NCBI GenBank assembly: GCA_023246355.1
Contig: JAHFIQ010000001.1
Location: 222,234 to 286,233 of the forward strand
Direction: 5' to 3'
DNA: 64,000 nt
Origin: Candidatus Uhrbacteria bacterium
GTDB lineage: Bacteria > Patescibacteriota > Patescibacteriia > UBA9934 > GWF2-40-263
Shown here: one piece after another, positions 10,183 to 62,603 of the stretch
Layout: each line of letters begins with the position of its first letter
Numbering within the stretch: the first letter of the stretch is position 1
Made by a program: the position numbers and the translations under genes
The notes under the pieces: generated by a model
What the model was told of the DNA's origin: nothing
Seen by the model: the letters and a program-made list of their open reading frames with translations, nothing else
Database searches by the model: none

Positions 10183-10195
10183 AGGGGGTCAAGGT

Positions 10196-10942: not shown

Positions 10943-11035
10943 GGTCTTTCCTTTGCTTGTGCCCATGTCGCGCCGGAGCGCAGAGGCACGTTTTGCCCCA
11001 AATTCCAGGCCGAACGCCCAGGTTGGAACCAACAA

Positions 11036-11074: not shown

Positions 11075-11641
11075 ATGATTCTGCTACCTGTGAAAAAAGA
11101 GGAACAAAACAACGCATACATCGACGCGGCGAACCTGCATCATGGTGTTCAGTCCCAAGGTTGGATTCTTGACTATCGTCGTTTCCGCATCTGGTTAAAA
11201 GAAAAGCATGGGGTAAAAAATGCCTATCTATTTCTTGGGTTGATTCCAAAGCACCATGCCCTGTATCAATCATTACAAGAGGCAGGATTCATCCTGATCT
11301 TTAAGGAAGTTATCTTTGACCGTGATGGTAAGCCTAAGGGTAATTGCGATGCGGATCTTGTCTTGCAGGTCACTGTGGACTTCTTTCATAAAACGTTCCA
11401 AAAAGCAGTCATCGTCACGAGCGATGGAGATTACGCTGGACTCGTAAAAATGCTGCACGCTCATCATGCACTGGAAATGATCGTCTCTCCAGCACAAGAA
11501 AAAAAGTGTTCAATTTTATTGAAACGATCGAATGCTCCCATGACTTATCTTGGACAGTCCCGTATGCGTCCACTTCTAGAGCGCCGAAAAGAAAAAGCCC
11601 CCGATGCGGACGGAACCGCACAGGGGTCTTCTTCGTGGTGA
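11075..11641 (+). CDS. NYN/LabA-like (PIN-like) domain protein
   Basis: AYIDAANLHHG....DADLVLQVTVD...AVIVTSDGDYAGLV pattern of DUF88/NYN. The track ORF 10367..11641 is inflated by the antisense frame of the target gene. Confidence 0.55.
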   Translation: MILLPVKKEEQNNAYIDAANLHHGVQSQGWILDYRRFRIWLKEKHGVKNAYLFLGLIPKHHALYQSLQEAGFILIFKEVIFDRDGKPKGNCDADLVLQVTVDFFHKTFQKAVIVTSDGDYAGLVKMLHAHHALEMIVSPAQEKKCSILLKRSNAPMTYLGQSRMRPLLERRKEKAPDADGTAQGSSSW

Positions 11642-11689
11642 TACAGAAACAATACAACCTCTGTGTATATAAGTCAAGAAAAAATACTA

Positions 11690-12816
11690 TGAGATCGAAA
11701 ACCCAATCAGGCATCAACCGCGAGGCGTGGCTTGCCCGCGATCTGTTTGATGAAAAAAAGCTTAGGCAGACTCCCACCCGCAACGGCTTTGGCGAGGGTT
11801 TGGTTGAAGCTGGACGAGTCAACAAAAATATCGTTGTCCTGTGTGCAGACCTCACCGAATCCACACGCGTTCTTCCCTTCAAGGAAGCCTATCCAGATCG
11901 TTTCGTTCAACTCGGGGTGAGTGAACAATCCATGCCTTCGATCGCGGCCGGCATGGCCATGGCTGGGAAAATTCCGTTCATTGCCAGCTATGCGTGCTTT
12001 TCTCCAGGTCGCAACTGGGAACAAATTCGCACCACGGTCGCACTCAACAACATGAACGTCAAAATTGCCGGCGCGCATGCGGGCGTCTCGGTCGGTCCCG
12101 ACGGCGCCACCCATCAGATGATCGAGGACCTTGCCATCATGCGAGTGCTGCCAAATATGAACGTCGTCGTCCCATGCGATACGATCGAAACACGAAAAGC
12201 AACAGAGACGATCGCGAAACTTGTCGGGCCATGCTATTTACGTTTTGCTCGAGAAAAATCGCCGGTGTTCACCACGATAAAGACGCCATTCAAAATTGGG
12301 CGTGCGGAAACATATCGATTCGGTCAGGACGTCACGATCATTGGAGCGGGGCCTCTTTTGTACGAAGCCCTCTTGGCAGCCGAAAGACTCTCCAAAGACT
12401 TTGGGATCGAATGCCGTGTTGTGAACATGCATACGATCAAGCCCTTGGATGTAAAGACGATCGTGAAGGCTGCGAAAGAAACTGGCGCGATTGTCACGGT
12501 TGAAGAAGCTCAGGCTGCTGGTGGACTTGCTGGCGCTGTGGCTGAAACCATTTCTCTGACAACACCTGTGCCCATGGAACGCATTGGTGTGCAAGATCGT
12601 TTTGGTGAATCTGGTACACCGCGCGAAGTCCAAGAAGGACTTGGCCTTACGGCCGAATTCATCGCTCTTGCCGTTGATCGTGTGCTTCGGCGCAAACATG
12701 GACAGCGTGTGCCGGATGTTCCCGCTCATGTCCTAGCCGCCCAAGAAAAACTCGTCAAAATGCAAAAGGCTGTTATGGACGCGGCGCTCAAAAAAGTCCC
12801 GAGGAAGTGGAAATAA
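11690..12816 (+). CDS. tkt: transketolase, C-terminal subunit (split tkt)
   Basis: Pyrimidine-binding and C-terminal domains (GVSEQSMPSIAAGMA, HAGVSVGPDGATHQ). The N-terminal 60 aa of the track ORF are a spurious extension. Confidence 0.85.
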
Positions 12817-26171: not shown

Positions 26172-26286
26172 TTGTCCTGGCGCCTACCTACTCTCGCGCA
26201 ATCGCACTACCATTGGCCCAAGAGAGCTTAACGGCCGTGTTCGAGATGGGAACGGGTGTGGCCTCTCAAGGAAGTGGCACCAAGAC
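26172..26286 (-). rRNA. rrf: 5S rRNA
   Basis: Reverse complement contains ..CCCGTTCCCATCTCGAACACGG..GCGAGAGTAGGTAGGCGCCAGG. Confidence 0.8.
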
Positions 26287-26623
26287 AAAGGAGTCTTTCT
26301 TTTTTTGTAGAAGAGATATTTCTCGCTTGAGACGAATCAAACGTAGAAATGGTTGTAGAGCTCGACCTATTAGTACTGCTCCGCTGAACGTCTTACGACG
26401 CTTACACGTACAGCCTATCAACCTCATAGTCTCTGAGGGGTCTCAAATGAAAACTAATCTTGGGAACGGCTTCGCACTTAGATGCTTTCAGCGCTTATCC
26501 GTACCGAACGTAGCTACCCGGCATTGCCCTTGGCAGGACAACCGGTACACGAGAGGTTCGTTCATTCCGGTCCTCTCGTACTAGGAATGAATTCCCTCAA
26601 TTTTCGATGCCCACGGCAGATAG

Positions 26624-26656
<33 letters not shown>

Positions 26657-26665
26657 ACTCACGTA

Positions 26666-26697
<32 letters not shown>

Positions 26698-27283
26698 AAC
26701 CTTCTCCAGCTCCAGGATGCGATGAGTCGACATCGAGGTGCCGAACCTCCCCGTCGCTGTGGACGCTTGGGGGAGACTAGCCTGTTATCCCCGGAGTAGC
26801 TTTTATCCGATGAGCTTCCGCCGTCCTATTTCGTACGGTCGGATCACTAACTTCTGCTTTCGCAACTGCTCGACTGGTCGGTCTCGCAGTAAAGCTGGCT
26901 TCTGGGTTTGCCCTTAGAGCGCGATTTCCATCCGCGCCAAGCCAACCTTTGTAAACGCCTCCGTTACATTTTAGGAGGCACCCGCCCCAGGTAAACTACC
27001 CACCAGATCCTGTCCCTGACTCCGGTTTCACGGAGTCTGGTTAGAATGCACACGACACAAGGGTGGTATCTCACTGGTGCCCGAAGGCTCCCACCTATTC
27101 TCAACATGTGATGCATGAACCCAAGATCAAGTTATAGTAAAGCTTCACGGGGTCTTTTCGTCTAGCCGCGGGTAGTGAGCATCTTCACTCACATTGCAAT
27201 TTCGCCGAGTCCATCGTTGAGAGAGTTCTCAACTTGTTATGCCATTCGTGCAGGACGGAACTTACCCGTCAAGGAATTTCGCT

Positions 27284-28002
27284 CGGGTCTGTTACACTCC
27301 CATTCATGGGAGGAGGTGATCATTTCTGTCACCTTCTGCATGTCACCATGCAGGTCGGACTATATCATCGTCTGTTAAGACGTTTGGCGTGTAGTCTCTG
27401 AGGATTCTAGAAATCGTGATGGAACCTTTCGGTTCATACTTTGAATAATGCGAGCAGCATCTTGAAGACCTTCAATTGTTTGATGTCGTCTGTTTTCCAT
27501 TAACTGTAAAACGGCGACAAACTTTTCGAAGTCTTCTTGTTTTGCTGTTCGTAATGGATGTTGAATGAAGAATGGGATGATCTTCAAACGAAGATCCCTC
27601 GTTGACCTCACACAATATCTCAGCAACGATTCGCGGTGATTGTCTGACCTTCGATTAAGATAGATCGATCCACACTGAAAGTGATCATGGATCAACTTCA
27701 GTGCCTCTCGACTCTTCTCACCTTGGGTTACGACAAACTCTGGGAACAATTGCCAGCCAAAGCTAGTGGTTGAATTACGGATCATGCTGACTGAGAAGCA
27801 ACCCTCTCCGTCGACAAATCCTACAATCCACCCAACGATATCTAGTCTTTCCTGCTGATTGTCTGGTCTATTAATCGCCATACTATGGCCGAATAATACC
27901 ATAGACCAGGTGTTCCAGCATATAGCCAAATTTTCTCTCTACATCTCCGCGGCAAACGAAGTTCAAGAGGAGGACATTCACCTCACTAAGGCAGTGTTAT
28001 TC
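27284..28002 (-). mobile_element. group I intron in 23S rRNA (inserted after ..GTCCTAAGGT, E. coli position about 1917) carrying a homing endonuclease gene
   Basis: The exon sequence is continuous when 27284..28002 is removed (GTCCTAAGGT | AGCGAAATTCCTTG). The intron ends in G and the upstream exon ends in U. Confidence 0.75.
27375..27929 (-). CDS. LAGLIDADG homing endonuclease
   Basis: IVGFVDGEGCF motif; lies wholly within the intron. Confidence 0.8.
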   Translation of the reverse strand: MAICWNTWSMVLFGHSMAINRPDNQQERLDIVGWIVGFVDGEGCFSVSMIRNSTTSFGWQLFPEFVVTQGEKSREALKLIHDHFQCGSIYLNRRSDNHRESLLRYCVRSTRDLRLKIIPFFIQHPLRTAKQEDFEKFVAVLQLMENRRHQTIEGLQDAARIIQSMNRKVPSRFLESSETTRQTS

Positions 28003-28856
28003 ACCTTAGGACGATTATAGTTATCGCCGGCGTTCATCCGCGCTTCAGTCGAAGGCTGCCGCCCTTGCGGGCTTGACCCCCTTCCTTAACGTTCGGACAC
28101 TGGCCAGGCATCAGCCCCTATACATCACCTTACGGTTTAGCAGGGACCTGTGTTTTTGGTAAACAGTCAGTTGAGATCTTTCGCTGCGGGTCGCATCCTC
28201 CCGGATGCAACCAGGCCTTATCCCGAAGTTACGGCCACTGTTTTGCCTAGTTCCTAAACGATGGTTCTCTCGTACGCCTTGGCACATTCACGTGCCCATC
28301 TACCTGTGTCGGTTTCCGGTACGGGTCTCTCTCACATAATCTTAGCAGCTTTTCTTGGCGCCCTGTCCTTTCCCCTTGTCAGTCCGATTGGACCAACTTG
28401 CGATTGTCTCCGTGCTCGAGATTGAACTCAGCTTGGCGGACTTCCCTACCAAGCGCCTAGAAACACCCAACGCTATAGCCATAGAGCGCGGGAAATTTCA
28501 GAACGCGTCCCTGCGTCAGTGTGAAAGAGAGTGCAGGAATAATAACCTGCTGTGCATCGACTACGCCTTTCGGCCTCGCCTTAGCTCCCGACTAACCCTG
28601 GGTCGATTCGCGTTGCCCAGGAAACCTTAGATTTACGGCGGACGGGATTCTCACCCGTCTTTTTGCTACTCATGCCAACATTCTCTCTTCGCATCGCTCC
28701 ACCCGTGGTCACCCACGAGCTTCAGTGCTGATACGAATGCTCCCCTACCGCGCCCTTCACTAACGTGAAGGACACCCTCAACTTCGGCACGTCATTTAGC
28801 CCCGGTACATTTTCGGCGCAAGAAAGCTTGACCAGTGAGCTGTTACGCTATCTTTA

Positions 28857-28894
<38 letters not shown>

Positions 28895-29511
28895 AGCCTT
28901 CTCACCACCTTTTACACTTAATGACGATTTAGGGGCCTTAGTTTGAGATCTGGGCTGTTGCCCTTTCGACCAATGGAGCTTCGCCCCCATGGTCTGACTG
29001 CCGGGAACACATAATGGTATTCGGAGTTTGGTTAGGCTCGCTAGCCGAAGCCGCTAAGCCCATTCAGTGCTCTACCCCCATTATGTTATTTACCGACGCT
29101 AGTCCAAAAACTATCTCGGGGAGAACCAGCTATTACCGAGTTCGATTGGAATTTCTCCGCTATCCACGCGTCATCCCCGACTTTTGCACAGGTCGTGGGT
29201 TCGGGCCTCCACGGGTTGTTACACCCGCTTCACCCTGCGCATGGATAGGTCACCCGGTTTCGGGTCGTGTGCGCGTCACACTCTATCTTTCTACTCGACC
29301 CCGCTTACCAAACTTGGCAGCGATTGAATCGAGTAGAGAGAAAGATCACGCGGGTTAACGCTCGCTTTCACTACGCCTTCGTCCCGGAGGACTTAAGCAA
29401 GCGACGCACAGCACACTCGTTGGCTCATTCTTCAATAGGAATGCCATCACCCCTTGCGAGGCTCTGACTCCTTGTAAGCATACGGTTTCAGATACTATTT
29501 CATTCCCCTCT

Positions 29512-29544
<33 letters not shown>

Positions 29545-30509
29545 GTTCACTATCGATCAGAACATGTATTTAGCCTTACCAGATAGTCCCGGCAGGTTCC
29601 TACAGGATTTCACGAGTCCCGTAGTACTCAAGGATGTCACTTATGATGGTGCGAATGAATTTCACATACAGGACTATCACCTTCTGTGGTTCTCTTTTCC
29701 AAGAGATTTTGTTATTCATCACACAGGTCCCATCACTCGTCTTTGAAAGAAGACGACCGTAACCCTTACAACCCCTACAACCACAACGGCTTCCACCTTT
29801 CGCCACCGTTTACATGTTGACTTGCGTCGCGATGCTCACCGTAACTTCATGATCGTAGGTTTGGGCTATTTCCTGTTCGCTCGCCGCTACTAAGGAAATG
29901 GATTCGCTTGCACGTTTCCACGCATCGAGAACTCGTGCGTAAAAATGTGAAACGAATAATACTTTTTCTTTTCCTCTGGGTACTGAGATGTTTCACTTCC
30001 CCAGGTTCCCTTCCTGCACCTATGTATTCAGTACAGGACCATGCGGCATTCCCCGCATGAGGTTTCCCTATTCGGAAATCTTCGGATCAAAGGTTGCTTG
30101 CCACCTCCCCGAAGCTTATCGCAGGCTGCTACGTCCTTCATCGGCACGTTCTGTCGAGCCATTCACCGTATGCCCTTATTAATGCTCTACAACCATTTCT
30201 AAATTCGATTTAGAGAATGGTGTATCTCTTCTACCCTATTGTTCAATTGTGAAAGGTCGTCTGGCCGATATGAGAGACGGCTCTATTCTTCGGTGCAGAT
30301 TTTGTCATCTGAACCCAAGGACACAAAAAACCGCGCAGGCGGTCTTCACCGTAACCAAAGTGTTTACGATAAGATCGCTCTGTCATCGTGAAACTTGTGT
30401 TACGTTTGTCATAGATGTGGTCTCCGTGAGCTCTCCCTCTCTTCAATCCCTCTGGATTCAGCCTCGGTTCAGGGGACAAAAGAGGAAGAACGTGTTTCAA
30501 ATTACTGGC

Positions 30510-33090: not shown

Positions 33091-35787
33091 TTGTGTAAGC
33101 GGCGTTGGGGAGTTTTTGTTTGTCGCGCGTTCTGTGCACAGCTCATTAACAATCTAAACCGACCTATGATGCTATTTAATCGAGCCTGGCTTGTTGTTGT
33201 CATGCTTCTGTCGATCGTGGCCCTCCCGATCCGCGCAGGAGCAACTTCACCCACGGTGATCTTTTCTGAGATCGCCTGGGCTGGTTCGTCGATCTCAAGT
33301 TCTGACGAATGGATCGAGCTCACAAATCTTACTTCTGAAACAATCGATGTCTCAGGATGGACGATCACGGGGGCAGGATCCAGTGGAAAAAAACTGACGC
33401 TCCCAACAAGCAGCTCCATGGCCCCTTACTCAACCTTTCTCATCACCAATTATGAACATGGAAACAAAAACACGGTCCTTGCCTCTGCACCCAACTACAC
33501 AACGTCCACCGTGTCCCTGCCAAATGACGGATTCGCACTTACTCTCTTTGATGCTCTCGGTACAACCATCGATACCGCAGGAGGAAGTGGAGCTCCTTTC
33601 GCTGGAGGATCTGGCGCTACTGCAACGTCTGCTGATGGACGATACCGATCCATGGTCCGAATCGATGGACTGATGGCTGGATCAGAAAAAACAGCTTGGA
33701 CAGATGCAACAAGTTCATCTGGATTTCTCGAAGGTGTTACAGATTTGGGAACACCTGGAGTTGTTGAACCGGTCGAACAAGTTGTGATCGTTGAGAACGT
33801 GGAGACCGCGGAAGTCGCAGAGGCTGAAGTGACAGAAACACCGGTCCAAGAAGAAGTGGTCGTTGTGGTCGTGCCAATCGCAGTGGAAGAAGTATCCGTT
33901 GCACAAACCGTAGAAGAGACAGTCGAGGTCATCGTTGATGAAATTCAATCAGCCCCCTCTGTCCTATCCGACCCAGAAGTCCTAGCTCAAGATCCAATCA
34001 TTGAGGAAACCATTCAAGCAGATGTGGTCGAGGAAACAACGGAGAATGAGGTGGACAAGGTGGATGAGGTGGAAGAAGTGGAAGAGGAAGTAAAAATTGA
34101 AACAGTGTTAACCGAACCACTCGTGTCCTACACACCCGGGGTGATTCTGATCAACGAGTTCGTTGTGGATCCATTGGACACTCAAACCGAATGGATCGAA
34201 TTGGTGAACCGTTCAGGTGAAACAATCACACCCACCAACTGGACCATCGAGGACGCAGCAGGAAAAACAACGGACCTCTCGAATCTAATTCTTGCCCCGG
34301 GATCGTTTGCGATCGTCGATGCTCCAAAAGGAAAACTCAACAACGACCGTGACACGATCACTCTGCGCGACGCCACACATCTCATCATCGACTCAGTGAG
34401 CTACGGCGGCTCACTGCCCTCACCTCAAGACGGGATGGCACTCGCACGAAATAGTTCAGATGAGTTTGTACTCACGGAAACCACAACACCTGGAACGGTG
34501 AACGTAATTTTTGTGGAACAAGCCGTAGAGGCTATCAAAGCCGCCGAAACGAAAGAAGAATCGGTTGAGAAAGATGCATCGGTATCATCTGACCAAGATG
34601 CAGCGAATGAAGTACAGACCTACACAGGTCCGACAACCCTTGGGTTCTCCTCGCTCTATCCCAATACAACAGGGTCAGATGAAACGGAAGAATATATCGA
34701 GCTCACCAACACGGGAACAGAATCCATCGACCTGCTGGGCTGGTCCATCGAAGACAGCACACTCGATCGCTACACAGGCTCAGAGTCACAAATCGTGGAG
34801 CCTGGAGCTCACGTGAAAATCGGACGAATAGATTCTGGCATCACTCTCAACAACACGGGTGACACACTTGAGCTCCGTGATCCAAACAACGAGGTTGTGG
34901 ACACCGTGAGTTATGGTAATGCAGCAAAGGGAGCGGCCTACACACTTGAAGACGATGCATGGTCCTGGTCAGGAACTGTCTCAGTTGCTGAAGCGATCGC
35001 TGCCACAATGGCAGTGAGCACTACACGAACCATCTCAAGTGCATCCTCTTCTTCCACATCCTCAAGAACGCAAACCATGACCATCGAGGAATCAAAAAAC
35101 CTGTCAGACGGTAAGCGTGTACGAGTGGAAGGAATCGTCACAGCCCTGCCTGGAGTGTTTGCTCGCCAGACGCTCTATGTCATGGACGAAACCGGTGGCA
35201 TTCAAATCTACTTCTACGATGCTGACTTTCCCGAACTCGTGATCGGGCAGAGGATCTCTCTCATAGGAGAAATGAGCACGTCCCACGGCGAGCGACGCAT
35301 TAAAATACACACGCAAGAGGATGTGGTCACCACAGAACAAACCGCGACGAACACACCGATTCTTCTCTCGATCCCAGAGATAGGCGATGATCAGGTGGGG
35401 TTACTCATCACCACAAAAGGCTTGGTGCAATCGCGTGAAAGCGGAAAGCTCCTGATCGAAGATTCTGGATCCGAACTGGTTGTGTCTTTGAAGAGCAACC
35501 CTGAGATTGATGCAGCTCGCTTTGAGCGGGGGGATCACATCACCATCACTGGTGTCCTTACCAGCTACGACGGTGAGCATCGTATTCGACCACGTACAGA
35601 GGAAGACATCATGATCGACGAGTCCGTCGAAACCCTTGCTCTGTCAACAGATGAGGATGGCAAATCTCTATTTGAAGATGCCCAAGCACGCACAGGTATG
35701 ATCCTCTTGCTCGTCACGGCTGCATCGCTGGGGTTGCTCGCTTTCCGTCAACGTCGTATTCGACAGCTCACCTTGAGCACACCCTAA
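33091..35787 (+). CDS. large secreted protein with three lamin-tail-domain (LTD) repeats, acidic linker, OB-fold region and C-terminal TM anchor
   Basis: Three repeats of the ..EWIELTN.S....D.SGW.I.D.. pattern typical of LTDs; signal peptide; C-terminal hydrophobic segment followed by RQRRIR. Confidence 0.55.
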   Translation: MCKRRWGVFVCRAFCAQLINNLNRPMMLFNRAWLVVVMLLSIVALPIRAGATSPTVIFSEIAWAGSSISSSDEWIELTNLTSETIDVSGWTITGAGSSGKKLTLPTSSSMAPYSTFLITNYEHGNKNTVLASAPNYTTSTVSLPNDGFALTLFDALGTTIDTAGGSGAPFAGGSGATATSADGRYRSMVRIDGLMAGSEKTAWTDATSSSGFLEGVTDLGTPGVVEPVEQVVIVENVETAEVAEAEVTETPVQEEVVVVVVPIAVEEVSVAQTVEETVEVIVDEIQSAPSVLSDPEVLAQDPIIEETIQADVVEETTENEVDKVDEVEEVEEEVKIETVLTEPLVSYTPGVILINEFVVDPLDTQTEWIELVNRSGETITPTNWTIEDAAGKTTDLSNLILAPGSFAIVDAPKGKLNNDRDTITLRDATHLIIDSVSYGGSLPSPQDGMALARNSSDEFVLTETTTPGTVNVIFVEQAVEAIKAAETKEESVEKDASVSSDQDAANEVQTYTGPTTLGFSSLYPNTTGSDETEEYIELTNTGTESIDLLGWSIEDSTLDRYTGSESQIVEPGAHVKIGRIDSGITLNNTGDTLELRDPNNEVVDTVSYGNAAKGAAYTLEDDAWSWSGTVSVAEAIAATMAVSTTRTISSASSSSTSSRTQTMTIEESKNLSDGKRVRVEGIVTALPGVFARQTLYVMDETGGIQIYFYDADFPELVIGQRISLIGEMSTSHGERRIKIHTQEDVVTTEQTATNTPILLSIPEIGDDQVGLLITTKGLVQSRESGKLLIEDSGSELVVSLKSNPEIDAARFERGDHITITGVLTSYDGEHRIRPRTEEDIMIDESVETLALSTDEDGKSLFEDAQARTGMILLLVTAASLGLLAFRQRRIRQLTLSTP

Positions 35788-53056: not shown

Positions 53057-54040
53057 ATGCTTCCAAGGAATAGCGCCCTGTGTCTGTTACTGCTCTTGGG
53101 ACTTGGCTGCACACAGACACCTGCGATCACCATCACAGCTACCACGCTTCCCGAGTATCAAGAACAACTCTCAGCTCTCGTTCAATCGGATGATCCTTCT
53201 ATTGCTCTTCAAACCCTTGCCGCTCTCATGGAAACAGACAGCTTTGCTCTCAACAACTGTCATGAAATTTTGCACGAGATAGGCGAAGCCGCGCTCAACA
53301 AGTATGGTTTTGTTGAAGCCCTAAGCTATCAAGATGATCTGTGCAACTCAGGCTTCGTCCATGGCGTGATCGAAGCGTATTTTAAAGAGGCACAGGACAT
53401 CACGGTCTCCATGCAAGAAGTTTGTGTAGGACTTCCGGAGCCATCGCTCAGTGCTTGGGAGTGCTATCACGGCACAGGCCATGGATTTATGCTCGCCACA
53501 GGAACGGATCTTGATGCATCTCTTGCTCTGTGCGGCGAGCACAAAAATACCTTTGAACAAAAGGCCTGCGTGAACGGCGTGTTCATGGAAGTCTTCACAC
53601 TCGATGATGTGTCACGTGCGTATTATCTCCCGGCTTCTGCTGATGCTCTTACATTCTGTGGAGGAATAACCAGCGGACGCACGGATTGCTTTACCTATGC
53701 AGGAACGTTGTACCTCAAAGAGCATCCAGACGACTTTGAAGGACTGATCGCTTGGTGCTCGGGCGCAACAGATACGGATAGAGCGCACTGCATTGCTGGA
53801 GCCGGAAGTGAAATGATGAAACGATCCATGGACAACCCAGAGCGTGTGGAGACTTCCTGTCTAAACGCCGAAGAAAATCTTGTGCCTGAATGTCTCATGG
53901 GAGCGGTCACGCAAGCCGTCTTTCACACAGGAAATTCAGCTGAAGTGAAATCAACCGTCTGTCGCGCATGGAGTTCAGAAAACAAAAAAGGTTGCTCTCG
54001 TGCCGTCGAGTTGATTGCCGATCGCTATCAAATCGAATAG
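53057..54040 (+). CDS. Cys-rich lipoprotein, hypothetical
   Basis: Lipobox LLGLGC; many conserved Cys residues. Confidence 0.4.
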   Translation: MLPRNSALCLLLLLGLGCTQTPAITITATTLPEYQEQLSALVQSDDPSIALQTLAALMETDSFALNNCHEILHEIGEAALNKYGFVEALSYQDDLCNSGFVHGVIEAYFKEAQDITVSMQEVCVGLPEPSLSAWECYHGTGHGFMLATGTDLDASLALCGEHKNTFEQKACVNGVFMEVFTLDDVSRAYYLPASADALTFCGGITSGRTDCFTYAGTLYLKEHPDDFEGLIAWCSGATDTDRAHCIAGAGSEMMKRSMDNPERVETSCLNAEENLVPECLMGAVTQAVFHTGNSAEVKSTVCRAWSSENKKGCSRAVELIADRYQIE

Positions 54041-54053
54041 AATGAAGGTACCT

Positions 54054-54917
54054 ATGAAGATTCGAAAAGCGATTATTCCCGTGGCCGGCATGGGCACGCG
54101 GTTTCTCCCTGCCTCCAAGGCCCAACCCAAAGAAATGCTCGCGGTCGTGGACAAGCCCATCATCCAGTACATTGTGGAAGAAGCCGTGGCAAGCGGGATC
54201 GAAGAAATCATTTTTGTGACCTCCATTGGCAAGCGCGCCATAGAAGATCACTTTGATCGCAACTTCGAGCTTGAATATCGCTTGGAGCAAAAGAAAAAAA
54301 TGAAGGAACTCGACCAAGTGAAAGCCGTGGGCAAGCTCGCGAAGTTTGCCTTCGTCCGCCAGTCCAAACCTTTGGGTGATTGTCATGCCGTGCTCTCAGC
54401 TCTTCCCTTCATCGATGCCCATGAACCCGTTGCTGTTCTCTTTGGCGATGACATCATCGACGGAAAAATTCCTGCCCTGCGACAACTCATGGACGTGTAT
54501 GAAAAATACGGCGACCCGGTGGTCTCTCTGCACAAAGTCCCGAAAAAAATGGTACCGAGTTTCGGAGTGGTTGATGGAAAACGCTTGGACAAAAAAACCT
54601 GGGAGATCAGTCGGTTTGTTGAAAAGCCAACGCTCGCGCAAGCTCCGTCAGACTTGGTCGTGATCGGCCGATATATTCTCACACCAGAGGTTATGGCGCT
54701 CCTCACAAAAACCAAGCCAGGCCCAGACGGAGAAATTCGCCTCGCCGGCGCCTTCGAAGATTTGCTCGCACAAAAGAAGGCTCTCTACGGATGCATCTTT
54801 GAAGGCACCTGGTACAACTGTGGAAATAAATTTGGATTTTTGAAAGCGCAAATTGAACTTGGGCTCAAGCACCCAGAAACAGGAAAAGAGCTCAGACGCT
54901 ATCTTGCAACCGTATGA
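54054..54917 (+). CDS. galU: UTP--glucose-1-phosphate uridylyltransferase
   Basis: KAIIPVAGMGTRFLPASKAQPKEML N-terminal signature. Confidence 0.85.
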   Translation: MKIRKAIIPVAGMGTRFLPASKAQPKEMLAVVDKPIIQYIVEEAVASGIEEIIFVTSIGKRAIEDHFDRNFELEYRLEQKKKMKELDQVKAVGKLAKFAFVRQSKPLGDCHAVLSALPFIDAHEPVAVLFGDDIIDGKIPALRQLMDVYEKYGDPVVSLHKVPKKMVPSFGVVDGKRLDKKTWEISRFVEKPTLAQAPSDLVVIGRYILTPEVMALLTKTKPGPDGEIRLAGAFEDLLAQKKALYGCIFEGTWYNCGNKFGFLKAQIELGLKHPETGKELRRYLATV

Positions 54918-56284
54918 AAAATTTTTGGAGGTCCGTCATGGTGCTCATGCTCCCCGCTCTCATCTTGAGTGGCTGTGGAGGTTCAAGCGCAGCTCAGACG
55001 CTTGCTAGCAAACCTGTCACGATTACGATTTGGCGCGTGTTTGACGACAGCGATACGTTTCAAAGTCTCATGAGCGCCTACCAGGCCATCCACCCAAATA
55101 TTTCTTTTTCGTACAAAGAGCTTCGTTATGATGAATACGAAGATGAACTGATTCGCGCATTTGCTGAAGGCAAGGGTCCAGATATTTTTTCCCTGCACAA
55201 TACCTGGATTGGCGAATACGAAAGTTTGATCAAACCCTTGCCAAAATCTCTCTCCATTGCCTACGCTGAAACACGCGGCACGATCAAAAAAGAAACCGTT
55301 TACACAATAGAAGAAGAACCAACCATGTCTGAAAGGACCCTCAAGGCAGACTTCGTCGACGTGGTTGCCCAAGATGTCCTAAGGTCCTACAAAGCGAATG
55401 CAAAATCTGAATCTGAAGATCGCATATTCGCCTTGCCCCTTTCGATGGACACGCTGGCACTCTACTACAACAAGGATTTGCTGGACGCCGCTGGAATCGC
55501 AGAACCCCCTTCCACCTGGACCGAATTTCAAGACGACGTGACGCTGCTTACCAAAATCGGGAGCAACGACCAAATTCTCCAGGCCGGTGCGGCCATGGGA
55601 ACATCCCAAAACGTTGAACGCGCGTTTGATTTGGTCTCCCTGCTCATGATGCAAAACGGCACAGCCATGACCGACTCGCGTGACCGTCCGACCTTTGCCA
55701 ATGAAACAGACGCGGGATTTTTGGCTGGCGAGGCTGTACGTTTTTACACAGACTTCGCCAATCCTCTGAAAGCTGTCTACACCTGGAACGCACAGCAACC
55801 AAATTCGTTTGATGCGTTTGTGAACGGCAACTCCGCCTTTTTCTTTGGCTACTCCTACCACAACGCTTTCATCAAAACCGCCAACAGCAAACTTGATTTT
55901 GGCATTGCACCGATTCCGCAAATTGACGGAGGGAAAACCGTCAACTACGCCAACTACTGGGTGGAGACAGTGGCCAAATCAAGTGACGCTGGAGATTGGG
56001 CCTGGGACTTTGTGCAGTTTGCGGCACAGGAAGACAACGTCGACAGCTACTTAGAAGCCGCGAACAAACCCACGGCTCTGCGTGGCCTCCTTTCGACTCA
56101 ACTCGAAGACGAGGTCCTTTCTGTGTTTGCTGGTCAGGCACTCACAGCGGATTCGTGGTACAAAGGAAGCGACGCACAAGTCGCTGAAGATGCGTTCCTA
56201 GATCTCATTGATGCGATTCTTGCTGGCGACGAACAAGAAACAGCTCTCAAAGAAGCTCAGAACAAAGTGAGCCAAACGCTATGA
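54914..56284 (+). CDS. ABC transporter extracellular solute-binding lipoprotein (family 1, sugar-type)
   Basis: Lipobox LILSGCGG; SBP_bac_1-like length and pattern. Confidence 0.6.
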   Translation: MKNFWRSVMVLMLPALILSGCGGSSAAQTLASKPVTITIWRVFDDSDTFQSLMSAYQAIHPNISFSYKELRYDEYEDELIRAFAEGKGPDIFSLHNTWIGEYESLIKPLPKSLSIAYAETRGTIKKETVYTIEEEPTMSERTLKADFVDVVAQDVLRSYKANAKSESEDRIFALPLSMDTLALYYNKDLLDAAGIAEPPSTWTEFQDDVTLLTKIGSNDQILQAGAAMGTSQNVERAFDLVSLLMMQNGTAMTDSRDRPTFANETDAGFLAGEAVRFYTDFANPLKAVYTWNAQQPNSFDAFVNGNSAFFFGYSYHNAFIKTANSKLDFGIAPIPQIDGGKTVNYANYWVETVAKSSDAGDWAWDFVQFAAQEDNVDSYLEAANKPTALRGLLSTQLEDEVLSVFAGQALTADSWYKGSDAQVAEDAFLDLIDAILAGDEQETALKEAQNKVSQTL

Positions 56285-57024
56285 TGAATTTTTCTCGTCA
56301 TTTCAAAATGGGCTTCCTCGCGTTGCTTGGAATGACGCTAGCCTTAATGCCCTTCCCTGTCTTTGCCTACTCCTCAAATATCTGCACGGCTGGCAGCACT
56401 TGTGGAGCGAACGAAGTTGGTGTGTTCATGCAAGGCATTTCACTGGCCTGTGGCAACACCGGAGACTGTACGCTCAATGACATCATGCTGGTGTTTGTGA
56501 ACACCGGAAACTATGTCGTGGGTCTCATCGGTGGGATTGTGCTTCTCATGTACATCATTGGCGGCGTGTATTTCCTCACCTCAGCCGGAAACCCAGAACG
56601 CGTCAAAGAAGGAAAAAAATATCTCAGCATCTCCACAATCGGACTGCTCATTGTGATGTTTAGCTACCTTGGAATCTACGCACTAAAAGGCGTTCTTCAG
56701 GGAGGAACCTTCTCCGTGAGTGGTGACTATGTCGCCTGCACAGGGACCGACGCAAATGAAGGAGCTGCTTGCGATCTCAACAGCACTTGCGTGGAGGGAA
56801 TCTGTCTGAGTCAATGCGAACAAAATCACGCTGACAGTTACTCATATAGCTCCTCAACTGGCATCGCAAGTTTTTATACTTGTGTCGATAAAGATCACAC
56901 CGCAACGTCTCAATCAGAAAGTACGGATGGAACCTGGTACACAGGATCCTGCCAAACCAATCTCTGTCCAGGAGGGACAGGTACACAATGCTGCCTACTA
57001 AATAGAGTACAAAGCTCAGAGTAA
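56281..57024 (+). CDS. T4SS-pilin-like (TrbC/VirB2-like, PF18895-type) protein 1, with extra Cys-rich C-terminal extension
   Basis: Signal peptide plus the conserved two-TM core GGVYFLTSAGNPERVKEGKKYL..IGLLIVMFSY. Confidence 0.55.
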   Translation: MMNFSRHFKMGFLALLGMTLALMPFPVFAYSSNICTAGSTCGANEVGVFMQGISLACGNTGDCTLNDIMLVFVNTGNYVVGLIGGIVLLMYIIGGVYFLTSAGNPERVKEGKKYLSISTIGLLIVMFSYLGIYALKGVLQGGTFSVSGDYVACTGTDANEGAACDLNSTCVEGICLSQCEQNHADSYSYSSSTGIASFYTCVDKDHTATSQSESTDGTWYTGSCQTNLCPGGTGTQCCLLNRVQSSE

Positions 57025-57028
57025 TTTT

Positions 57029-57364
57029 ATGCAACGTTTTCTCATCATCTCCCTCGGTGCACTCTTGGCTTCACTCCCTCGTCTAAGCCACGCAGCCGCG
57101 CTCACGAACCCGCTTGGGACAACCGACCTCACGGTGATTATCGCCCGTCTTATCCAAGCCATCCTTGGCATCACTGGCGCGATTGCGCTTCTCATGTTCA
57201 TCTGGGGTGGATTCCAGTGGCTGATCTCTGCTGGATCTCCTGAGAAAGTAAAAAAAGGGAAAGAGACACTGACTTGGGCTGTAATCGGCTTGGCTGTCAT
57301 TGTTGGCGCCTACATGTTGGTCTCGGCTGTTGTGTCCGCCCTTGAATCCGGAACCCTTGCCTAA
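57029..57364 (+). CDS. T4SS-pilin-like protein 2
   Basis: WGGFQWLISAGSPEKVKKGKETL..IGLAVIVGAYM. Confidence 0.55.
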   Translation: MQRFLIISLGALLASLPRLSHAAALTNPLGTTDLTVIIARLIQAILGITGAIALLMFIWGGFQWLISAGSPEKVKKGKETLTWAVIGLAVIVGAYMLVSAVVSALESGTLA

Positions 57365-57493
57365 AACCTACTCCCTACAACCTACCCCCTTCCTGTGTGG
57401 ATATCTTTATTCGTTCAAATCCCCAAAAAGCTTTAGAATAATAGCAACCTAGTTTTTAACTTTTAAGCATTTCCTCTAAAGGAGGTGAAGCCT

Positions 57494-57952
57494 ATGTACA
57501 ACCTTGTTTCAAAAAAGCACATTGGATATTTCCTCGGTGCTGTTCTGGCTCTTTCGTTTGGTGCCATTGCCCTCATGGGTGTGCATCCTGTAGCAGCTCA
57601 AGATTCTGACTCTGCTCTTACAGCTGATGAACTCTTTGGCGGATCAACTGGTGATTCATTCGCTGCTTCCGCTGGTCTTGGTGACGCAAATTTGGTGGAC
57701 TCCATTGCGTCCATCATTCGTATCGCCTTAGGATTTCTGGGAGTCATCGCCGTGGTGATCATCTTGCTTGGTGGATTCAAGTGGATGACGGCCGGTGGCA
57801 ACGATGAAAAAGTAAAAGGTGCCAAAAAATTGATCTTCTCAGGTATCATTGGTTTGGTGATTGTCATCGCAGCTTACGCCATCGCGAGCTTTGTCATCGA
57901 TTCGATCATTTCTGCCACAAGCGACTCTTCTTCTTCCTCAAGTTCAGAATAA
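57494..57952 (+). CDS. T4SS-pilin-like protein 3
   Basis: GGFKWMTAGGNDEKVKGAKKL..IGLVIVIAAYAIASFVI; GGAGGTG SD 6 nt upstream. Confidence 0.55.
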   Translation: MYNLVSKKHIGYFLGAVLALSFGAIALMGVHPVAAQDSDSALTADELFGGSTGDSFAASAGLGDANLVDSIASIIRIALGFLGVIAVVIILLGGFKWMTAGGNDEKVKGAKKLIFSGIIGLVIVIAAYAIASFVIDSIISATSDSSSSSSSE

Positions 57953-58027
57953 ATCCTGTCCCCTATCCTCTGGATGGGGGCCTGCCCAGTGTCGCCACTT
58001 TGTTGTGACCCTGGGTGAGCCTCTTCT

Positions 58028-58453
58028 ATGACTTTGACCTATAAACGTTCGATCATCTTCGGACTGGCTCTTTCGATGCTCTTCACGAGCTTCAGCCTTG
58101 CCCTCGCAGAAGAGGACACAACCGAGAGCGCGACCACAACTATTTCAGCAGGCCTCGATTCTGCGGCCGAGGGCTCTTACTCTGACACAGCCTCACTCAC
58201 GGAATTCATCGGTAACCTCATTCAAGTTCTGCTCACGGCCACGGGTATTCTCTTCCTGGTTCTCACGGTCTATGCTGGAGTGCTCTACATGACCGCAGCC
58301 GGAGATGAGAACAAGATCAAAAAAGCCAAGGGGATGATCGTGAGTGCACTTATTGGTCTCATTATCATCATCGGTGCCTATGCACTTACAAGTTATGTGA
58401 TCAGCGCGCTTTCCACTGCTTCCACAGCTACTACCGAAGCTTCTACAACCTAA
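58028..58453 (+). CDS. T4SS-pilin-like protein 4
   Basis: YAGVLYMTAAGDENKIKKAKGM..IGLIIIIGAYALTSYVI. Confidence 0.55.
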   Translation: MTLTYKRSIIFGLALSMLFTSFSLALAEEDTTESATTTISAGLDSAAEGSYSDTASLTEFIGNLIQVLLTATGILFLVLTVYAGVLYMTAAGDENKIKKAKGMIVSALIGLIIIIGAYALTSYVISALSTASTATTEASTT

Positions 58454-58478
58454 AACCTAATCCCTACCACCTTAATCT

Positions 58479-58865
58479 ATGAAACACCTTTGGACAAAAT
58501 TCGCTGCCTGGGCCTCCGTGCTTCCCATTCTTCTGCTCCCTGCCGCTGCCATGGCACAACTCTCAAGTGCTTCAGATGAGCTTACTTCCGTTGGAACAGC
58601 GATCGGAACAGACGCGACAACGAATGATCTTCCAGCTCTCATTGGAAACTTGATCAGTGTGCTTCTCTCAGTTCTGGGTATCATCTTTGTCGTGCTGGTT
58701 GTCTACGCCGGTTTCCTGTACCTCACAGCGGCTGGTGATGATGAGAAGGTCAAAAAGGCAAAGAAACTTCTCTCTCAATCTGTCATTGGGCTCGTCATCA
58801 TCATCGCTGCTTACGCGATTGCCAGCTATGTGATCGATGCCCTGTCCACAGCAGCAACGGGTTAA
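58479..58865 (+). CDS. T4SS-pilin-like protein 5
   Basis: YAGFLYLTAAGDDEKVKKAKKL..IGLVIIIAAYAIASYVI. Confidence 0.55.
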   Translation: MKHLWTKFAAWASVLPILLLPAAAMAQLSSASDELTSVGTAIGTDATTNDLPALIGNLISVLLSVLGIIFVVLVVYAGFLYLTAAGDDEKVKKAKKLLSQSVIGLVIIIAAYAIASYVIDALSTAATG

Positions 58866-58959
58866 CAAATCGTCAATCATAAAGCCGATCACACGATCGG
58901 TTTTTTGTTTCCAAAGGAAAACCCGCCGTGGCTAGAAGCCAGGCGGGTCGTTGCACGGG

Positions 58960-59787
58960 TTACCGTGCGGGCCAGTCTCGCCAGAGCGAGTAGGCATTCG
59001 CCGAGAGGTTGCCGCCGGGAGAGGAGGCAGAGCCAGGGCGGCAGTGGAGTGGCGCGTTGTCACCATGGCGCGGGGTGCGCCAGACGGTCTGCAGAGGCAG
59101 CCCAGGCACCTGGATCACCTTCCCGCTTTCACGCAGGTAGGTGAAGGTGAGAGCGTCGCCGCTTCGCCAGGTGGTGTAGAAACCAGTCTGGCGAGCAGGA
59201 TCGAGCACCTTGTAGGGCGTGGCGTCGGGTTCACCGTCACCGTCCAGATCCGCGTAGACTTCGACGAAACCCGAGGGAGCACCTGGCGGCGCCCACACAG
59301 GAACCGGGATCCCGTGGTTCATCACGATCACCCGAGCCTTGCTGGTTCCGCCGCAGCGTTCGTAGGAGCTTCGATCGCCCAGTGCGGTCACGTGAAGCGT
59401 GTCGCCCTCGATCTGCGTGAGGGTCTGGTAGATCGACACGAGACTCGGGCGCTGAACGCTCTGGTAGGGCACGCCGCCGACCACCGCAAAGGTGGTGCGA
59501 GCAGGAGCCGTAGAAGGCACAGAGATCGAAGTCGGTTCTTGACGATCGGCCGTCAGCTTGGCGACCGAGTCGCTGAGGCTCGCGACCTGCTCGCGAATCT
59601 CGACCTGGCCCTCTTGGATCTGACCGAGTTGATCGCTCAGGTCCTCTTGCGCTGCCTCGAGCGCCTGGAACCGAGGCTCGGCCATGCACGCCGCGATGGC
59701 CGCGGCATTGTGGTAGCGGTCCATGCAGGACTTGGCCAGATCCTGCGGCGCATCCGCGAACGCTACCGAGATGATGAGCGCGATCAT
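58960..59787 (-). CDS. high-GC secreted coiled-coil protein, hypothetical
   Basis: Signal peptide; about 66% GC; first gene of a three-gene minus-strand block. Confidence 0.45.
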   Translation of the reverse strand: MIALIISVAFADAPQDLAKSCMDRYHNAAAIAACMAEPRFQALEAAQEDLSDQLGQIQEGQVEIREQVASLSDSVAKLTADRQEPTSISVPSTAPARTTFAVVGGVPYQSVQRPSLVSIYQTLTQIEGDTLHVTALGDRSSYERCGGTSKARVIVMNHGIPVPVWAPPGAPSGFVEVYADLDGDGEPDATPYKVLDPARQTGFYTTWRSGDALTFTYLRESGKVIQVPGLPLQTVWRTPRHGDNAPLHCRPGSASSPGGNLSANAYSLWRDWPAR

Positions 59788-60257
59788 TTCTGCTCCTGGA
59801 TGGCATGAAGGGCGAGGGTCACGTCTTCTTCCGCACAGGCGGCCTGCTCGGCCGGGTTTGCGCGTTTTCGATCCTTGGGACAGGGAACGAGGCTGTTGTC
59901 ATGGGAGACGTTCTGCACCACGGTGGTGCCAAGTCGAGGAAGCGAACCTCCCTGACCGGTCCCCATGTACCAGCCGCTCGTGGTCGAAACCACATCCGCC
60001 GGCGCGTAGCCGTACAGACCAGACCCCGTGACGTAGCCATTGCCGGTCGTGAAACCGACGAAGGTATCCGTCATCTGCAGGTTGACTGGTTGCCCCTTGT
60101 CCATGGCCGCCTGTGCCAGGTCGAAGGACCGCTGTGCTTCCACGATGTCGACGGCCCCCTTGGCCGTTCCGAAGTAGGTGACGACCGGGGGTTCTTCGCC
60201 CACCGGTTGATGGATGGTTGCGCAGCCCACGAGGGCCAGAGGGATGAAGAATCGCAT
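59784..60257 (-). CDS. high-GC lipoprotein, hypothetical
   Basis: Lipobox LALVGC; start at MRFFIP. Confidence 0.45.
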   Translation of the reverse strand: MRFFIPLALVGCATIHQPVGEEPPVVTYFGTAKGAVDIVEAQRSFDLAQAAMDKGQPVNLQMTDTFVGFTTGNGYVTGSGLYGYAPADVVSTTSGWYMGTGQGGSLPRLGTTVVQNVSHDNSLVPCPKDRKRANPAEQAACAEEDVTLALHAIQEQK

Positions 60258-60384
60258 GGTGTTCTCCTTCGAAAAGAACGCTACAAAATACCATAAAAAT
60301 GGCATTTTGTCAATCAAAAACGCTTGAAACCCAATAAAATCAAATAGAAAAGCGGCTCATCCGAAGATGAACCGCCGTAATCGA

Positions 60385-62466
60385 CTACTTCTTGGGGCAG
60401 CCGATTTGCTCTCGCTGGTAGACCGAGATTGGCTGGTCGCAGATGTCCGTATGGCTCTTCTTGGGAGCCGGGGCAGGAGCCGCGACCACAGGCGTGGACG
60501 CGGCCGAGGAGGACTGGTAGCTCAGACCCCAGGGGAACCCTGAGCAGAGGAACCCTGCAGCGATCGTGATGACCATGCCCACCATGAGCGGGCCAACGCC
60601 GCGAATGCGCAAACGCGCGGGAGTCCCGTCGGGTACCTTTCGATACTCGAACCAGGACACGAGTGCGCTGAGTCCCATCAACCCTGCCAGAACCATCGCG
60701 AGCTTGAACCAGCTGGAAATGGTCGACAGACCCTTAACTCCTTGCGCGATGATCGCCACCTCGCTGGGATGAGCCGAGACCCAACCGTAGAGGAAGACGT
60801 TCAAGACCAGGTAGATCGCAAACGCGATGCTGAGCACCTTGCCGCTTTGCACGGCCGCGAGCTCTGCCTCGTAGCGATGGTTCGCCTCCACGTAGAGGAA
60901 ACCGACGGCCACCGTTCCCAGAAGGATCAGCGGAATCGGCAGACGCTGCGCAGGTGGAACTCCTAGCGCGATGGCGATCTGGGTCACCAGGCACATGACC
61001 AGCGTGAAGGCCGCGATCCTGCGACCGTAGGACTTCAGCAGATCCTTCTCATCGTGAAAGATGAACTTCATCCACCCAAACAGTGTCTGGATGAACGGAA
61101 ACGTGCAGGTGACCAGAAACGTGATGACTCCTGCCCACAGCACGTTCAAAGTTGCGGCTTCAGGTGCCGTCACCACGCTTCCACGGAACATCGCCACACC
61201 CTGCAAGGGCATGTTGAGTCCCATGAGGTACATCTTGCCCGCGAGGATCAGCAGCGCGATGAGGATGAGAGCTGGCACCCACACCGTGGCGGACAGTCCG
61301 AGAATCCCCAGACCAACCCACCAGGGACTGGCACCGCTCAGGGTCGCAGCACGACGGAAACGTCGAAGCCCACGAACGACCTTGGTGTAAAGCGGCTGCT
61401 CGCCACCCAACCACTTGTCGATCGCCTGGGTCTCGATCTCCACGAGCACGTCCAAGGAAAACTCTCCCTCGGGCGCTCCCTGACCGATCCGGCTGTGGTA
61501 GCCTTCGCCCAAGAGCTCATTGACGAACTTGGGTTCAGGCTTGCCCTTCAAGAGCGATTCCACCAGTCCCTCAGACTCCTCGCTGTCCAACCAGTCGAGG
61601 AGTCCTTCCCGCTGGAAGCGAGCATAGGACTTCATGTAGGCACGGATGACTTCCCAGGTATGCGGCGACCACTCACCGGCCTTCACAGGCGTGAAGAGCC
61701 GGGTGATGCGATCCAGCACCGAGGTCTCGACTTGGACGCCAGTGGCTTGCACCATCTGGGCCCATTCGGCAACGGTGTAGAGACGAACCGGCGAGGTCTG
61801 GATGACCCTGGTGGGCGGACCCTGAGGCTGGTTGCGACCACCACCCCCACGAGTTTCTTCTCGATGTGGGTTACGAACTTCGTAGTCTGTGACGAACCGC
61901 TGATAGGCCACATCCAGAACGACCGGGTTTCCCCAGGCCGTCATCCGAATGTTCCCTTGGTCGTCACGCGCCACGGGGAAGAACGGGTGTGCCATCCCAT
62001 ACGCGACATGCTCGATGATGGCCACCATGTCCACCGTCTTGTTGCGTTCAGCTGCAGCCGCACCTGCGGGCGAGACGGTCCGGTCAACGGCCGTGTTGAT
62101 CTGACGCTCGATCACGTCGGTTGCGGCTTCGCCCATGCCGATCAAGGCCGGAGCAGAAGCATGCAACGCCAGACGCACGGCGCGAACGATCGGCCGCTGA
62201 TCTCCCGGAAGGAACGTGAGAGCCTTGCGGCTGATGACCTCCGCCGCGATCGTGAAGACCAAGTGCGGAGCGTACTGAAGACCGGGAATGGCGCGAGCCG
62301 CTGCAACCAGGGCCGAGTCCGGACCGAACATCTGTCGATACGCACGCTTGGTGAGCGCGTTCTCGTCGTCACCAGCGGCAATGCCGGCGTCGATCGCCTT
62401 GCGAAATTCTCCCTCGACATGTCGTTCGGCCATTTCTGCGCCGATCCGATCGATGATGCCAGCCAT
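60385..62466 (-). CDS. high-GC large polytopic membrane protein (about 690 aa), hypothetical
   Basis: About 380-aa soluble N-domain followed by 8 or more TM helices; GGAGAG SD; TTGACA-17-TATAAA promoter at 62604..62632. Confidence 0.5.
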   Translation of the reverse strand: MAGIIDRIGAEMAERHVEGEFRKAIDAGIAAGDDENALTKRAYRQMFGPDSALVAAARAIPGLQYAPHLVFTIAAEVISRKALTFLPGDQRPIVRAVRLALHASAPALIGMGEAATDVIERQINTAVDRTVSPAGAAAAERNKTVDMVAIIEHVAYGMAHPFFPVARDDQGNIRMTAWGNPVVLDVAYQRFVTDYEVRNPHREETRGGGGRNQPQGPPTRVIQTSPVRLYTVAEWAQMVQATGVQVETSVLDRITRLFTPVKAGEWSPHTWEVIRAYMKSYARFQREGLLDWLDSEESEGLVESLLKGKPEPKFVNELLGEGYHSRIGQGAPEGEFSLDVLVEIETQAIDKWLGGEQPLYTKVVRGLRRFRRAATLSGASPWWVGLGILGLSATVWVPALILIALLILAGKMYLMGLNMPLQGVAMFRGSVVTAPEAATLNVLWAGVITFLVTCTFPFIQTLFGWMKFIFHDEKDLLKSYGRRIAAFTLVMCLVTQIAIALGVPPAQRLPIPLILLGTVAVGFLYVEANHRYEAELAAVQSGKVLSIAFAIYLVLNVFLYGWVSAHPSEVAIIAQGVKGLSTISSWFKLAMVLAGLMGLSALVSWFEYRKVPDGTPARLRIRGVGPLMVGMVITIAAGFLCSGFPWGLSYQSSSAASTPVVAAPAPAPKKSHTDICDQPISVYQREQIGCPKK

Positions 62467-62603
62467 GGAGTCTCTCCTGTGCGGGATGAACCGCCTTGAG
62501 TTGAAAGGTGCGCGCCCTGCCAGACTGCGAGAGGATTCCCGCAAATTCCGACAGAACAAAAGACCTTCAAAAGTTTGGCTTTCGCCGCACTGAAGAAGGT
62601 CTG

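Follow-up and report, generated by a model that had tools for sequence, protein, structure and literature searches.

Tandem arrays of VirB2-like pilin genes have been described from the Patescibacteria. In a search of 3,035 genomes of this phylum with two Pfam models, PF04956 (TrbC/VirB2) and PF18895 (T4SS_pilin), Quinonero-Coronel et al. 2025 (PMC12102498) reported 441 arrays of 2–11 pilin genes in 383 assemblies. The pilins of these arrays had a mean identity of 25% and a maximum of 54%, and it was suggested that the arrays serve antigenic variation or host adaptation. In the saccharibacterium Southlakia epibionticum, a series of pilin genes lies within an essential cluster for a type IV secretion system (T4SS) (Wang et al. 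2023, PMC10633639), and a 2025 review of T4SS restates this finding. Here, we describe five consecutive pilin genes at positions 56281–58865 on the + strand of a 64,000-nucleotide stretch (hereafter, the window) of contig JAHFIQ010000001.1, from a Candidatus Uhrbacteria bacterium, an ultra-small groundwater organism. Because arrays of this kind are already published in both of these studies, the kind itself is not new. We propose, with a probability of roughly 60%, that the five genes are an old and fixed set of functionally differentiated pilin-like proteins of the VirB2/TrbC superfamily (PF18895) that contribute to one surface or envelope structure.

The locus resembles the published Patescibacteria arrays in that its genes are tandem members of PF18895/PF04956 from the same phylum, with five genes at 22–50% pairwise identity. 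It differs in two ways. First, the essential array is inside a T4SS cluster, whereas the pilin genes described here follow galU and a gene for a solute-binding protein (SBP), and no T4SS gene was found over at least 58 kb upstream and 15 kb downstream. Second, variation was suggested for the published arrays, while the Uhrbacteria set is conserved gene for gene.

The pilins of diderm bacteria (PF04956; the T pilus, TrbC of RP4, and TraA of F) also have a long signal peptide and two hydrophobic helices that are joined by a short basic loop. But four of our five genes are below the cut-off for PF04956, and VirB5, VirB6, and VirB4 are not among their neighbours. Also, the organism is most likely a monoderm, as reviews describe the phylum. 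The Mbov_0395 family (NF045849), from the integrative and conjugative elements of Mycoplasma, consists of small hairpin proteins involved in monoderm conjugation, and gene 5 aligns over 69 of the 80 positions of the profile. However, Mbov_0395 is a single gene in a mobile element rather than a chromosomal array of five genes. The VirB2 families of Bartonella and Anaplasma do have several divergent tandem copies, which have been read as antigenic variation or host-range flexibility; in contrast, the orthologs here are conserved, and five assemblies show no strain variation. In modular type IV pilus pilins, such as those of Streptococcus sanguinis, a folded domain is grafted onto a pilin module and would be displayed on the filament. 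These resemble our proteins in having an extra folded domain on a pilin module, but they belong to an unrelated superfamily and use another assembly machine.

A shared hairpin and an added domain

All five proteins score above the Pfam gathering score for PF18895 (26.6 bits), with E values from 7e-7 to 1e-15 (individual scores are in Table 1). Gene 2 is the only one to exceed the gathering score for PF04956 (27.9 bits) as well; genes 3 and 5 are below it (16.7 and 19.4 bits), and genes 1 and 4 do not match. Genes 1, 2, and 5 were also scanned with NF045849 from NCBIfam, whose cut-off is 40 bits. Gene 5 exceeds this, while gene 2 (34.6 bits) and gene 1 (24.6 bits) are below it. We read the match of gene 5 as homology and not as evidence of the same function. 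The original prediction, which was made from the DNA alone, was that these are five tandem T4SS-pilin-like paralogs with a core of two transmembrane helices, and that they belong to the VirB2/TrbC-like family of bacteria from the candidate phyla radiation (CPR). The open reading frames (ORFs) do occupy exactly the positions given above, and both the profile scores and the nearest genomes, which are from Candidatus Uhrbacteria, agree with this assignment.

A hydrophobicity scan found that every paralog has a hydrophobic signal at its N-terminus followed by two long hydrophobic segments. AxA-like sites follow the signal in all five proteins (VFA/Y, SHA/A, VAA/Q, ALA/E, and AMA/Q in genes 1–5, with the slash marking the site). 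The loop between the two hydrophobic segments is rich in lysine, AG(N/D)xEK(V/I)KKGK, and in an alignment of the five paralogs, the invariant positions of the hairpin are G, G, G, K, K, IGL, and Y. The core motif that was originally proposed fits the alignment, apart from AG in place of GG in genes 4 and 5. This layout of signal and hairpin is that of VirB2-type pilins, and by analogy both ends of the mature proteins should lie outside the cell. The mature N-terminal regions are strongly divergent among the paralogs. They had been described as unrelated, which goes too far for genes 3, 4, and 5, as these can still be aligned there. A sequence-profile search of the Protein Data Bank with the five paralogs as queries gave no meaningful match.

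Gene 1 has an additional domain. When 5.8 billion proteins were searched with gene 1, 75 relatives were found, most of them 220–250 amino acids long, and those that have a source name are labelled as Uhrbacteria or as Patescibacteria group bacteria. Across an alignment of 41 homologues, 14 cysteines are conserved, with 4 in the mature N-terminus and 10 in residues 141–247. An AlphaFold2 model from this 41-sequence alignment (mean predicted local distance difference test score, or pLDDT, of 85.6) has a signal helix, helices at residues 65–100 and 105–140, and then a beta-rich domain of 107 residues with pLDDT > 90. The original prediction of an extra cysteine-rich domain in the first protein was thus correct. 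This C-terminal domain is rare: it matches 16 clusters among 1.84 billion representative proteins, and most of the proteins in these clusters have about 150–250 amino acids. Fold searches gave no useful match. To our knowledge, a large disulfide-rich domain at the C-terminus has not been described for classical VirB2 proteins.

The PF18895 module can also be joined to much larger regions. In loci related to this one (described below), it forms the N-terminus of a 641-amino-acid protein with Big_5 and of a 3,341-amino-acid protein with Big_5 and TIG. Because the module heads these large proteins, they support the view of a C-terminus that faces outward and is able to bear domains for display. 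More broadly, surface proteins of 635–3,341 amino acids in four loci begin with the PF18895 module and continue with Big_5, Big_7, or TIG (L025, 9878–11803; L040, 8022–19951; L026; and L030). We also noticed that in L025, the gene for the large protein is a few genes 3' of a type IV pilus cluster (T2SSE, T2SSF, and prepilin peptidase).

Conservation across the Uhrbacteria

A scan of species-representative genomes found 79 related loci. Nearly all of these carry tandem arrays, of 2–15 pilin-like ORFs, so a tandem array is the normal arrangement in this group. As judged by the identity of gene 5 (91, 88, 85, 76, and 70%), the nearest genomes are mostly from Candidatus Uhrbacteria, whose entries in Table S1 of PMC12102498 are assigned to the GTDB class ABY1.

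To describe the conservation of the set, we compared 11 Uhrbacteria genomes: the window and ten relatives. The five-gene set is present in 10 of the 11 species, and one relative has a sixth gene. The arrays share a pattern of sizes, with a long first protein followed by proteins of about 110, 150, 115–140, and 128 amino acids. In a neighbour-joining tree of the core (92 columns), each of paralogs 1, 2, and 3 falls into one clade that spans all 11 genomes, while paralogs 4 and 5 group as sisters and are partly reshuffled in some lineages. Since the paralogs form clades of orthologs across the 11 genomes, the duplications must be older than these species.

The orthologs are about as well conserved as the neighbouring genes. 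The cores of the five pilins are 85–97% identical to those of locus L006 and 76–88% identical to those of L008, with the highest value (97%, to L006) for gene 3. For comparison, the SBP is 89% and 79% identical to its homologues in these two loci, and GalU is 91% and 89% identical. The mature N-terminal regions of genes 1, 2, 3, and 5 are 82–91% identical to L006 and 70–91% identical to L008. In gene 4, conservation of this region is the lowest, at 55% and 46%. For the C-terminal domain of gene 1, identity is 85% with L006 but only 35% with L008, and its cysteines are retained. Omega, the ratio of nonsynonymous to synonymous divergence, is around 0.02–0.2, which is well below 1 and indicates purifying selection; these are rough values because synonymous divergence (dS) is saturated. 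For the N-terminal regions compared with L006, the estimates that could be made range from 0.03 to 0.2.

At the strain level, the array in contigs from five metagenome samples is 99.98–100% identical to the window. Within the array, the DNA of different copies is just 63–75% identical in the core and lacks long identical tracts, which rules out recent duplication or gene conversion. The set of duplicates is old, fixed, and conserved, and it is not a fast-varying disguise. The original prediction had read the diversification as antigenic or host-surface variation and had called for a comparison of copy number and sequence across related strains. That comparison, given here, does not bear out the variation: the set is fixed, the N-termini of orthologs are conserved, omega is low, and the five assemblies are nearly identical.

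Neighbouring genes and other features of the window

The galU, SBP, and pilin genes are in the same orientation, with ends that overlap or are tightly spaced (Table 1). As read from the sequence, the stop codon of the SBP gene overlaps the start codon of pilin gene 1 in ATGA. The GalU-like protein scores 319 bits against the NCBIfam model for galU (TIGR01099), which is slightly below the cut-off of 326.8. Among proteins of solved structure, the best relatives of the SBP are the binding proteins of sugar ABC transporters (4qrz, 1e-17). No ABC permease or ATPase gene lies beside the SBP gene: upstream are genes for GalU, a 327-amino-acid protein, an MgtE-like protein, and a TauE-like protein, and downstream are the pilins. 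The 327-amino-acid protein, encoded just 5' of GalU, is a cysteine-rich exported protein that belongs to no family and, among the related loci, has a homologue in L009 only.

The link between the SBP and the pilins extends beyond this genome. Among the 78 non-self loci with pilin matches, 49 have a homologue of the SBP, and in 46 of these 49, fewer than 150 nt lie between the end of the SBP gene and a following pilin ORF on the same strand. In 12 of the 78 loci, the upstream stretch is too short to judge, and 17 have enough room yet lack the SBP. This leaves 66 informative loci, and in 46 of them the SBP immediately precedes the pilins, at 33–89% identity. The linked loci come from genomes labelled as Uhr-, Falkow-, Magasanik-, and Komeilibacteria and include a complete chromosome (CP066698.1). 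In 34 related loci, the SBP gene is itself preceded by a GalU homologue. In contrast, no downstream neighbour is common to more than 7 loci. A second recurring context for the arrays is PBP1A with a family-2 glycosyltransferase. The main text of PMC12102498 does not mention a solute- or substrate-binding protein, and a literature search found nothing that joins CPR, VirB2, and a substrate-binding protein; the linkage seems to be unreported, as do the strong ribosome-binding site confined to gene 3 and the giant surface proteins that begin with the pilin module.

Many of the related contigs (L007, L015, L017, L023, and numerous others) are publicly labelled as 'uncultured Gammaproteobacteria bacterium'. 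These labels look wrong, because the contigs carry the galU-SBP-pilin string as in Uhrbacteria and other Patescibacteria.

Within the array, gene 3 is the only gene with a Shine-Dalgarno sequence, and the site is kept in six related loci (L006, L007, L008, L009, L010, and L070). The ORF of gene 3 could begin at 57485, which would give 155 amino acids, and gene callers place its start at the ATG listed in Table 1. A 24-nt element that occurs twice in the array has just these two copies in the window, as compared to zero expected in shuffled sequence. It is seemingly not kept in L006 or L008. The terminator-like hairpin after gene 5 ends both the pilin array and the convergent genes downstream.

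Table 1. Features of the window, numbered from its first nucleotide (aa, amino acids; RT, reverse transcriptase)
Feature	Coordinates	Strand	Details
GalU-like UTP-glucose-1-phosphate uridylyltransferase	54015–54917	+	Pfam NTP_transferase 111 bits; end overlaps start of SBP gene
Sugar-type solute-binding lipoprotein (SBP_bac_1)	54914–56284	+	Lipobox LSGC; Pfam SBP_bac_1 100.7 bits
Pilin paralog 1, 247 aa	56281–57024	+	Signal peptide, 4-Cys N-terminal segment, two-helix hairpin, 107-residue 10-Cys beta-rich C-terminal domain; PF18895 29.7 bits
Pilin paralog 2, 111 aa	57029–57364	+	Most canonical member; PF18895 58.0 bits, PF04956 28.7 bits
24-nt element CCTAAAACCTAMTCCCTACMACCT	57360–57383 and 58449–58472	+	Starts at stop codon region of paralogs 2 and 4
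Promoter-like site	57414–57442	+	Ahead of paralog 3
Shine-Dalgarno AGGAGG	57480–57485	+	Consensus; 8 nt 5' of ATG of paralog 3
Pilin paralog 3, 152 aa from ATG	57494–57952	+	Ser-rich C-terminal tail; PF18895 34.0 bits; candidate major subunit
Pilin paralog 4, 141 aa	58028–58453	+	Ser/Thr-rich tail; PF18895 36.0 bits
Pilin paralog 5, 128 aa	58479–58865	+	PF18895 44.7 bits; NF045849 46.9 bits
Two-way terminator-like hairpin	58881–58904	both	10-bp stem and T run on + strand; matching site on - strand
327-aa Cys-rich exported protein	53057–54040	+	
GC-rich block	58960–62559	-	Three genes
Multi-pass protein, 693/724 aa	60385–62559	-	Within GC-rich block
Diversity-generating retroelement	8287–11035	-	
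RT ORF of retroelement	8287–9333	-	RVT_1
Template repeat	9740–9867	-	128 nt
Variable repeat	10209–10336	-	84% identical to template repeat
ORF with variable repeat, 279 aa	10196–11035	-	No family
Split transketolase halves	6423–7322 and 11506–12816		
5S rRNA gene	26175–26284		
23S rRNA gene	26349–30194	-	
LAGLIDADG homing endonuclease ORF	27375–27929		Within 23S rRNA gene
898-aa protein	33091–35787	+	Three lamin-tail domains; OB-fold/DUF5689-like region

Beside the array is a block of high GC content (0.61, as compared to 0.51 for the window), which keeps this position in the Uhrbacteria. In the relatives, the block is at 0.60–0.64, versus 0.51–0.55. Its three genes, of 275, 157–177, and 693–724 amino acids, have no known family, and they evolve quickly, with 37–55% identity between genomes versus 79–91% for their neighbours. 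The longest product has about eight membrane helices and 7 homologues among the 5.8 billion proteins. We checked this multi-pass protein as a candidate for VirB6, and it has no match in Pfam or NCBIfam; its AlphaFold2 model (pLDDT 52.6) is too poor for use. A chimeric assembly does not account for the jump in GC content after position 58900, as the same junction is present in independent assemblies and relatives show a similarly high GC content in the block.

Otherwise, the window is ordinary chromosome, with 23S and 5S rRNA genes, five tRNA genes, transketolase, aldolase, sugar kinases, PolX, and RuvB. It also encodes cell-wall enzymes, a polysaccharide flippase, and an O-antigen-ligase-like protein. 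The transketolase gene is split into two halves with a diversity-generating retroelement in between. The variable repeat of this retroelement is at the 3' end of an ORF, and the repeats differ by 21 mismatches, 18 of which fall on an A when the template is read on the - strand. Relative to the Rfam model, the 23S rRNA gene has about 900 extra nucleotides, owing to an insertion that holds a homing endonuclease; rRNA insertions of this type have been reported for CPR bacteria. The 5S rRNA gene adjoins it, and there is no 16S rRNA gene within the window. Finally, the 898-amino-acid protein with lamin-tail domains may be a surface protein or related to nucleases.

Proposed role of the array

We propose that the five products assemble as a single surface filament or envelope structure at the interface with the host cell. 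The product of gene 3 would be the main building block, because gene 3 has the sole conserved strong ribosome-binding site as well as its own promoter-like site. The product of gene 1 would be a specialised subunit that shows disulfide-rich modules on the outside, and the products of genes 2, 4, and 5 would be minor or adaptor subunits. The pilin set would be co-expressed with the sugar-binding lipoprotein and with GalU. By analogy with the Saccharibacteria, assembly would probably be powered by a VirB4-type machine that is encoded elsewhere in the genome; given the homology of the pilins as well as this analogy, dependence on VirB4 is plausible.

Several observations weigh against this proposal. 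The families VirB4, VirD4, VirB6, VirB3, and TrsD are not represented among the scanned ORFs of the window, none of the window's ORFs of at least 500 amino acids is an ATPase, and no T4SS gene was found in the 10 kb past the end of the window. The original prediction had tied the pilin assignment to a profile match and to a T4SS ATPase in the genome; the match is there, while the ATPase was not found in the window or in those 10 kb. Across the 79 related loci, a Walker-A screen of ORFs of at least 450 amino acids, combined with Pfam searches of selected neighbours, found no VirB4-like protein within 10 kb of the arrays, and no VirD4 or VirB6 either. Furthermore, in the entries for Uhrbacteria in Table S1 of PMC12102498, VirB4 is listed as absent from three of the four metagenome-assembled genomes (MAGs) that carry the orthologous array (L012, L013, and L014) and as present in the fourth (L009). 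Among 36 Uhrbacteria MAGs listed there, VirB4 is present in 18 and absent from 18. Incompleteness of the MAGs could explain the missing entries. Also, the fold searches did not separate the hairpin from generic helical hairpins, the filament itself is predicted, and the roles of the subunits are based solely on expression signals and domain content.

The main rival to our proposal is that in ABY1, the hairpin proteins, the SBP, and GalU form an envelope module for glycan capture, anchoring, or uptake that is independent of any T4SS, with only an ancestral tie to VirB2. This seems possible but clearly less probable. It would explain why the SBP is directly upstream in most of the informative loci, from several lineages, and overlaps gene 1 here, while downstream neighbours are shared by so few. 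It would also fit with the T4SS genes missing from the vicinity of these arrays, with the SBP gene having no adjoining ABC permease or ATPase gene, and with the alternative context of PBP1A and a glycosyltransferase, which are envelope genes too. Similarly, in the entries of Table S3 of PMC12102498 for these classes, the VirB2 hits of ABY1 are flagged as not near virB4, whereas the arrays of Microgenomatia are flagged as near, and VirB4 was not detected in three of the four listed relatives. However, the homology indicates pilins of the conjugative type, arrays adjoin virB4 in other classes of Patescibacteria according to those entries, and some of the ABY1 genomes listed with arrays do have VirB4. 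Gene linkage is not proof of joint function, and we know of no mechanism of this kind.

A more far-reaching version of that idea, which we consider doubtful, is that the hairpin proteins of ABY1 were uncoupled from the T4SS and that, with the co-translated SBP and GalU, they make a new filament or membrane assembly that binds or imports host glycans. Its fixed and specialised subunits would include 'modular' VirB2-type pilins that show disulfide-rich or Ig-like domains.

The weakest of the three readings is that the paralogs are alternative major pilins for changing the surface or switching between host strains, as was offered in PMC12102498: the paralogs are only 22–50% identical and do differ most in the exposed N-terminal region, and two parts, the N-terminus of gene 4 and the C-terminal domain of gene 1, outpace the cores, but this seems quite improbable given the fixed copy number and order across species, the strict orthology of paralogs 1–3, the conserved N-termini and low omega of the orthologs, the lack of any sign of gene conversion, and the near-identity of five independent assemblies.

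We therefore return to a set of differentiated pilin-like subunits in one structure. A large part of bacterial diversity belongs to the Patescibacteria, whose cells are apparently attached to hosts. In the one genetic study, a VirB2-like pilin array proved to be essential, and the locus described here sharpens the question of what such arrays do. What it adds beyond the published arrays is modest: the linkage to the SBP, the gene-for-gene conservation, and the modular pilins. That an old array can keep each of its genes in this way favours a structure with several subunits over a device for variation. The array in ABY1 is tied to a sugar-binding lipoprotein and GalU, and not to a secretion ATPase, and the pilin module can bear large domains that face outward.

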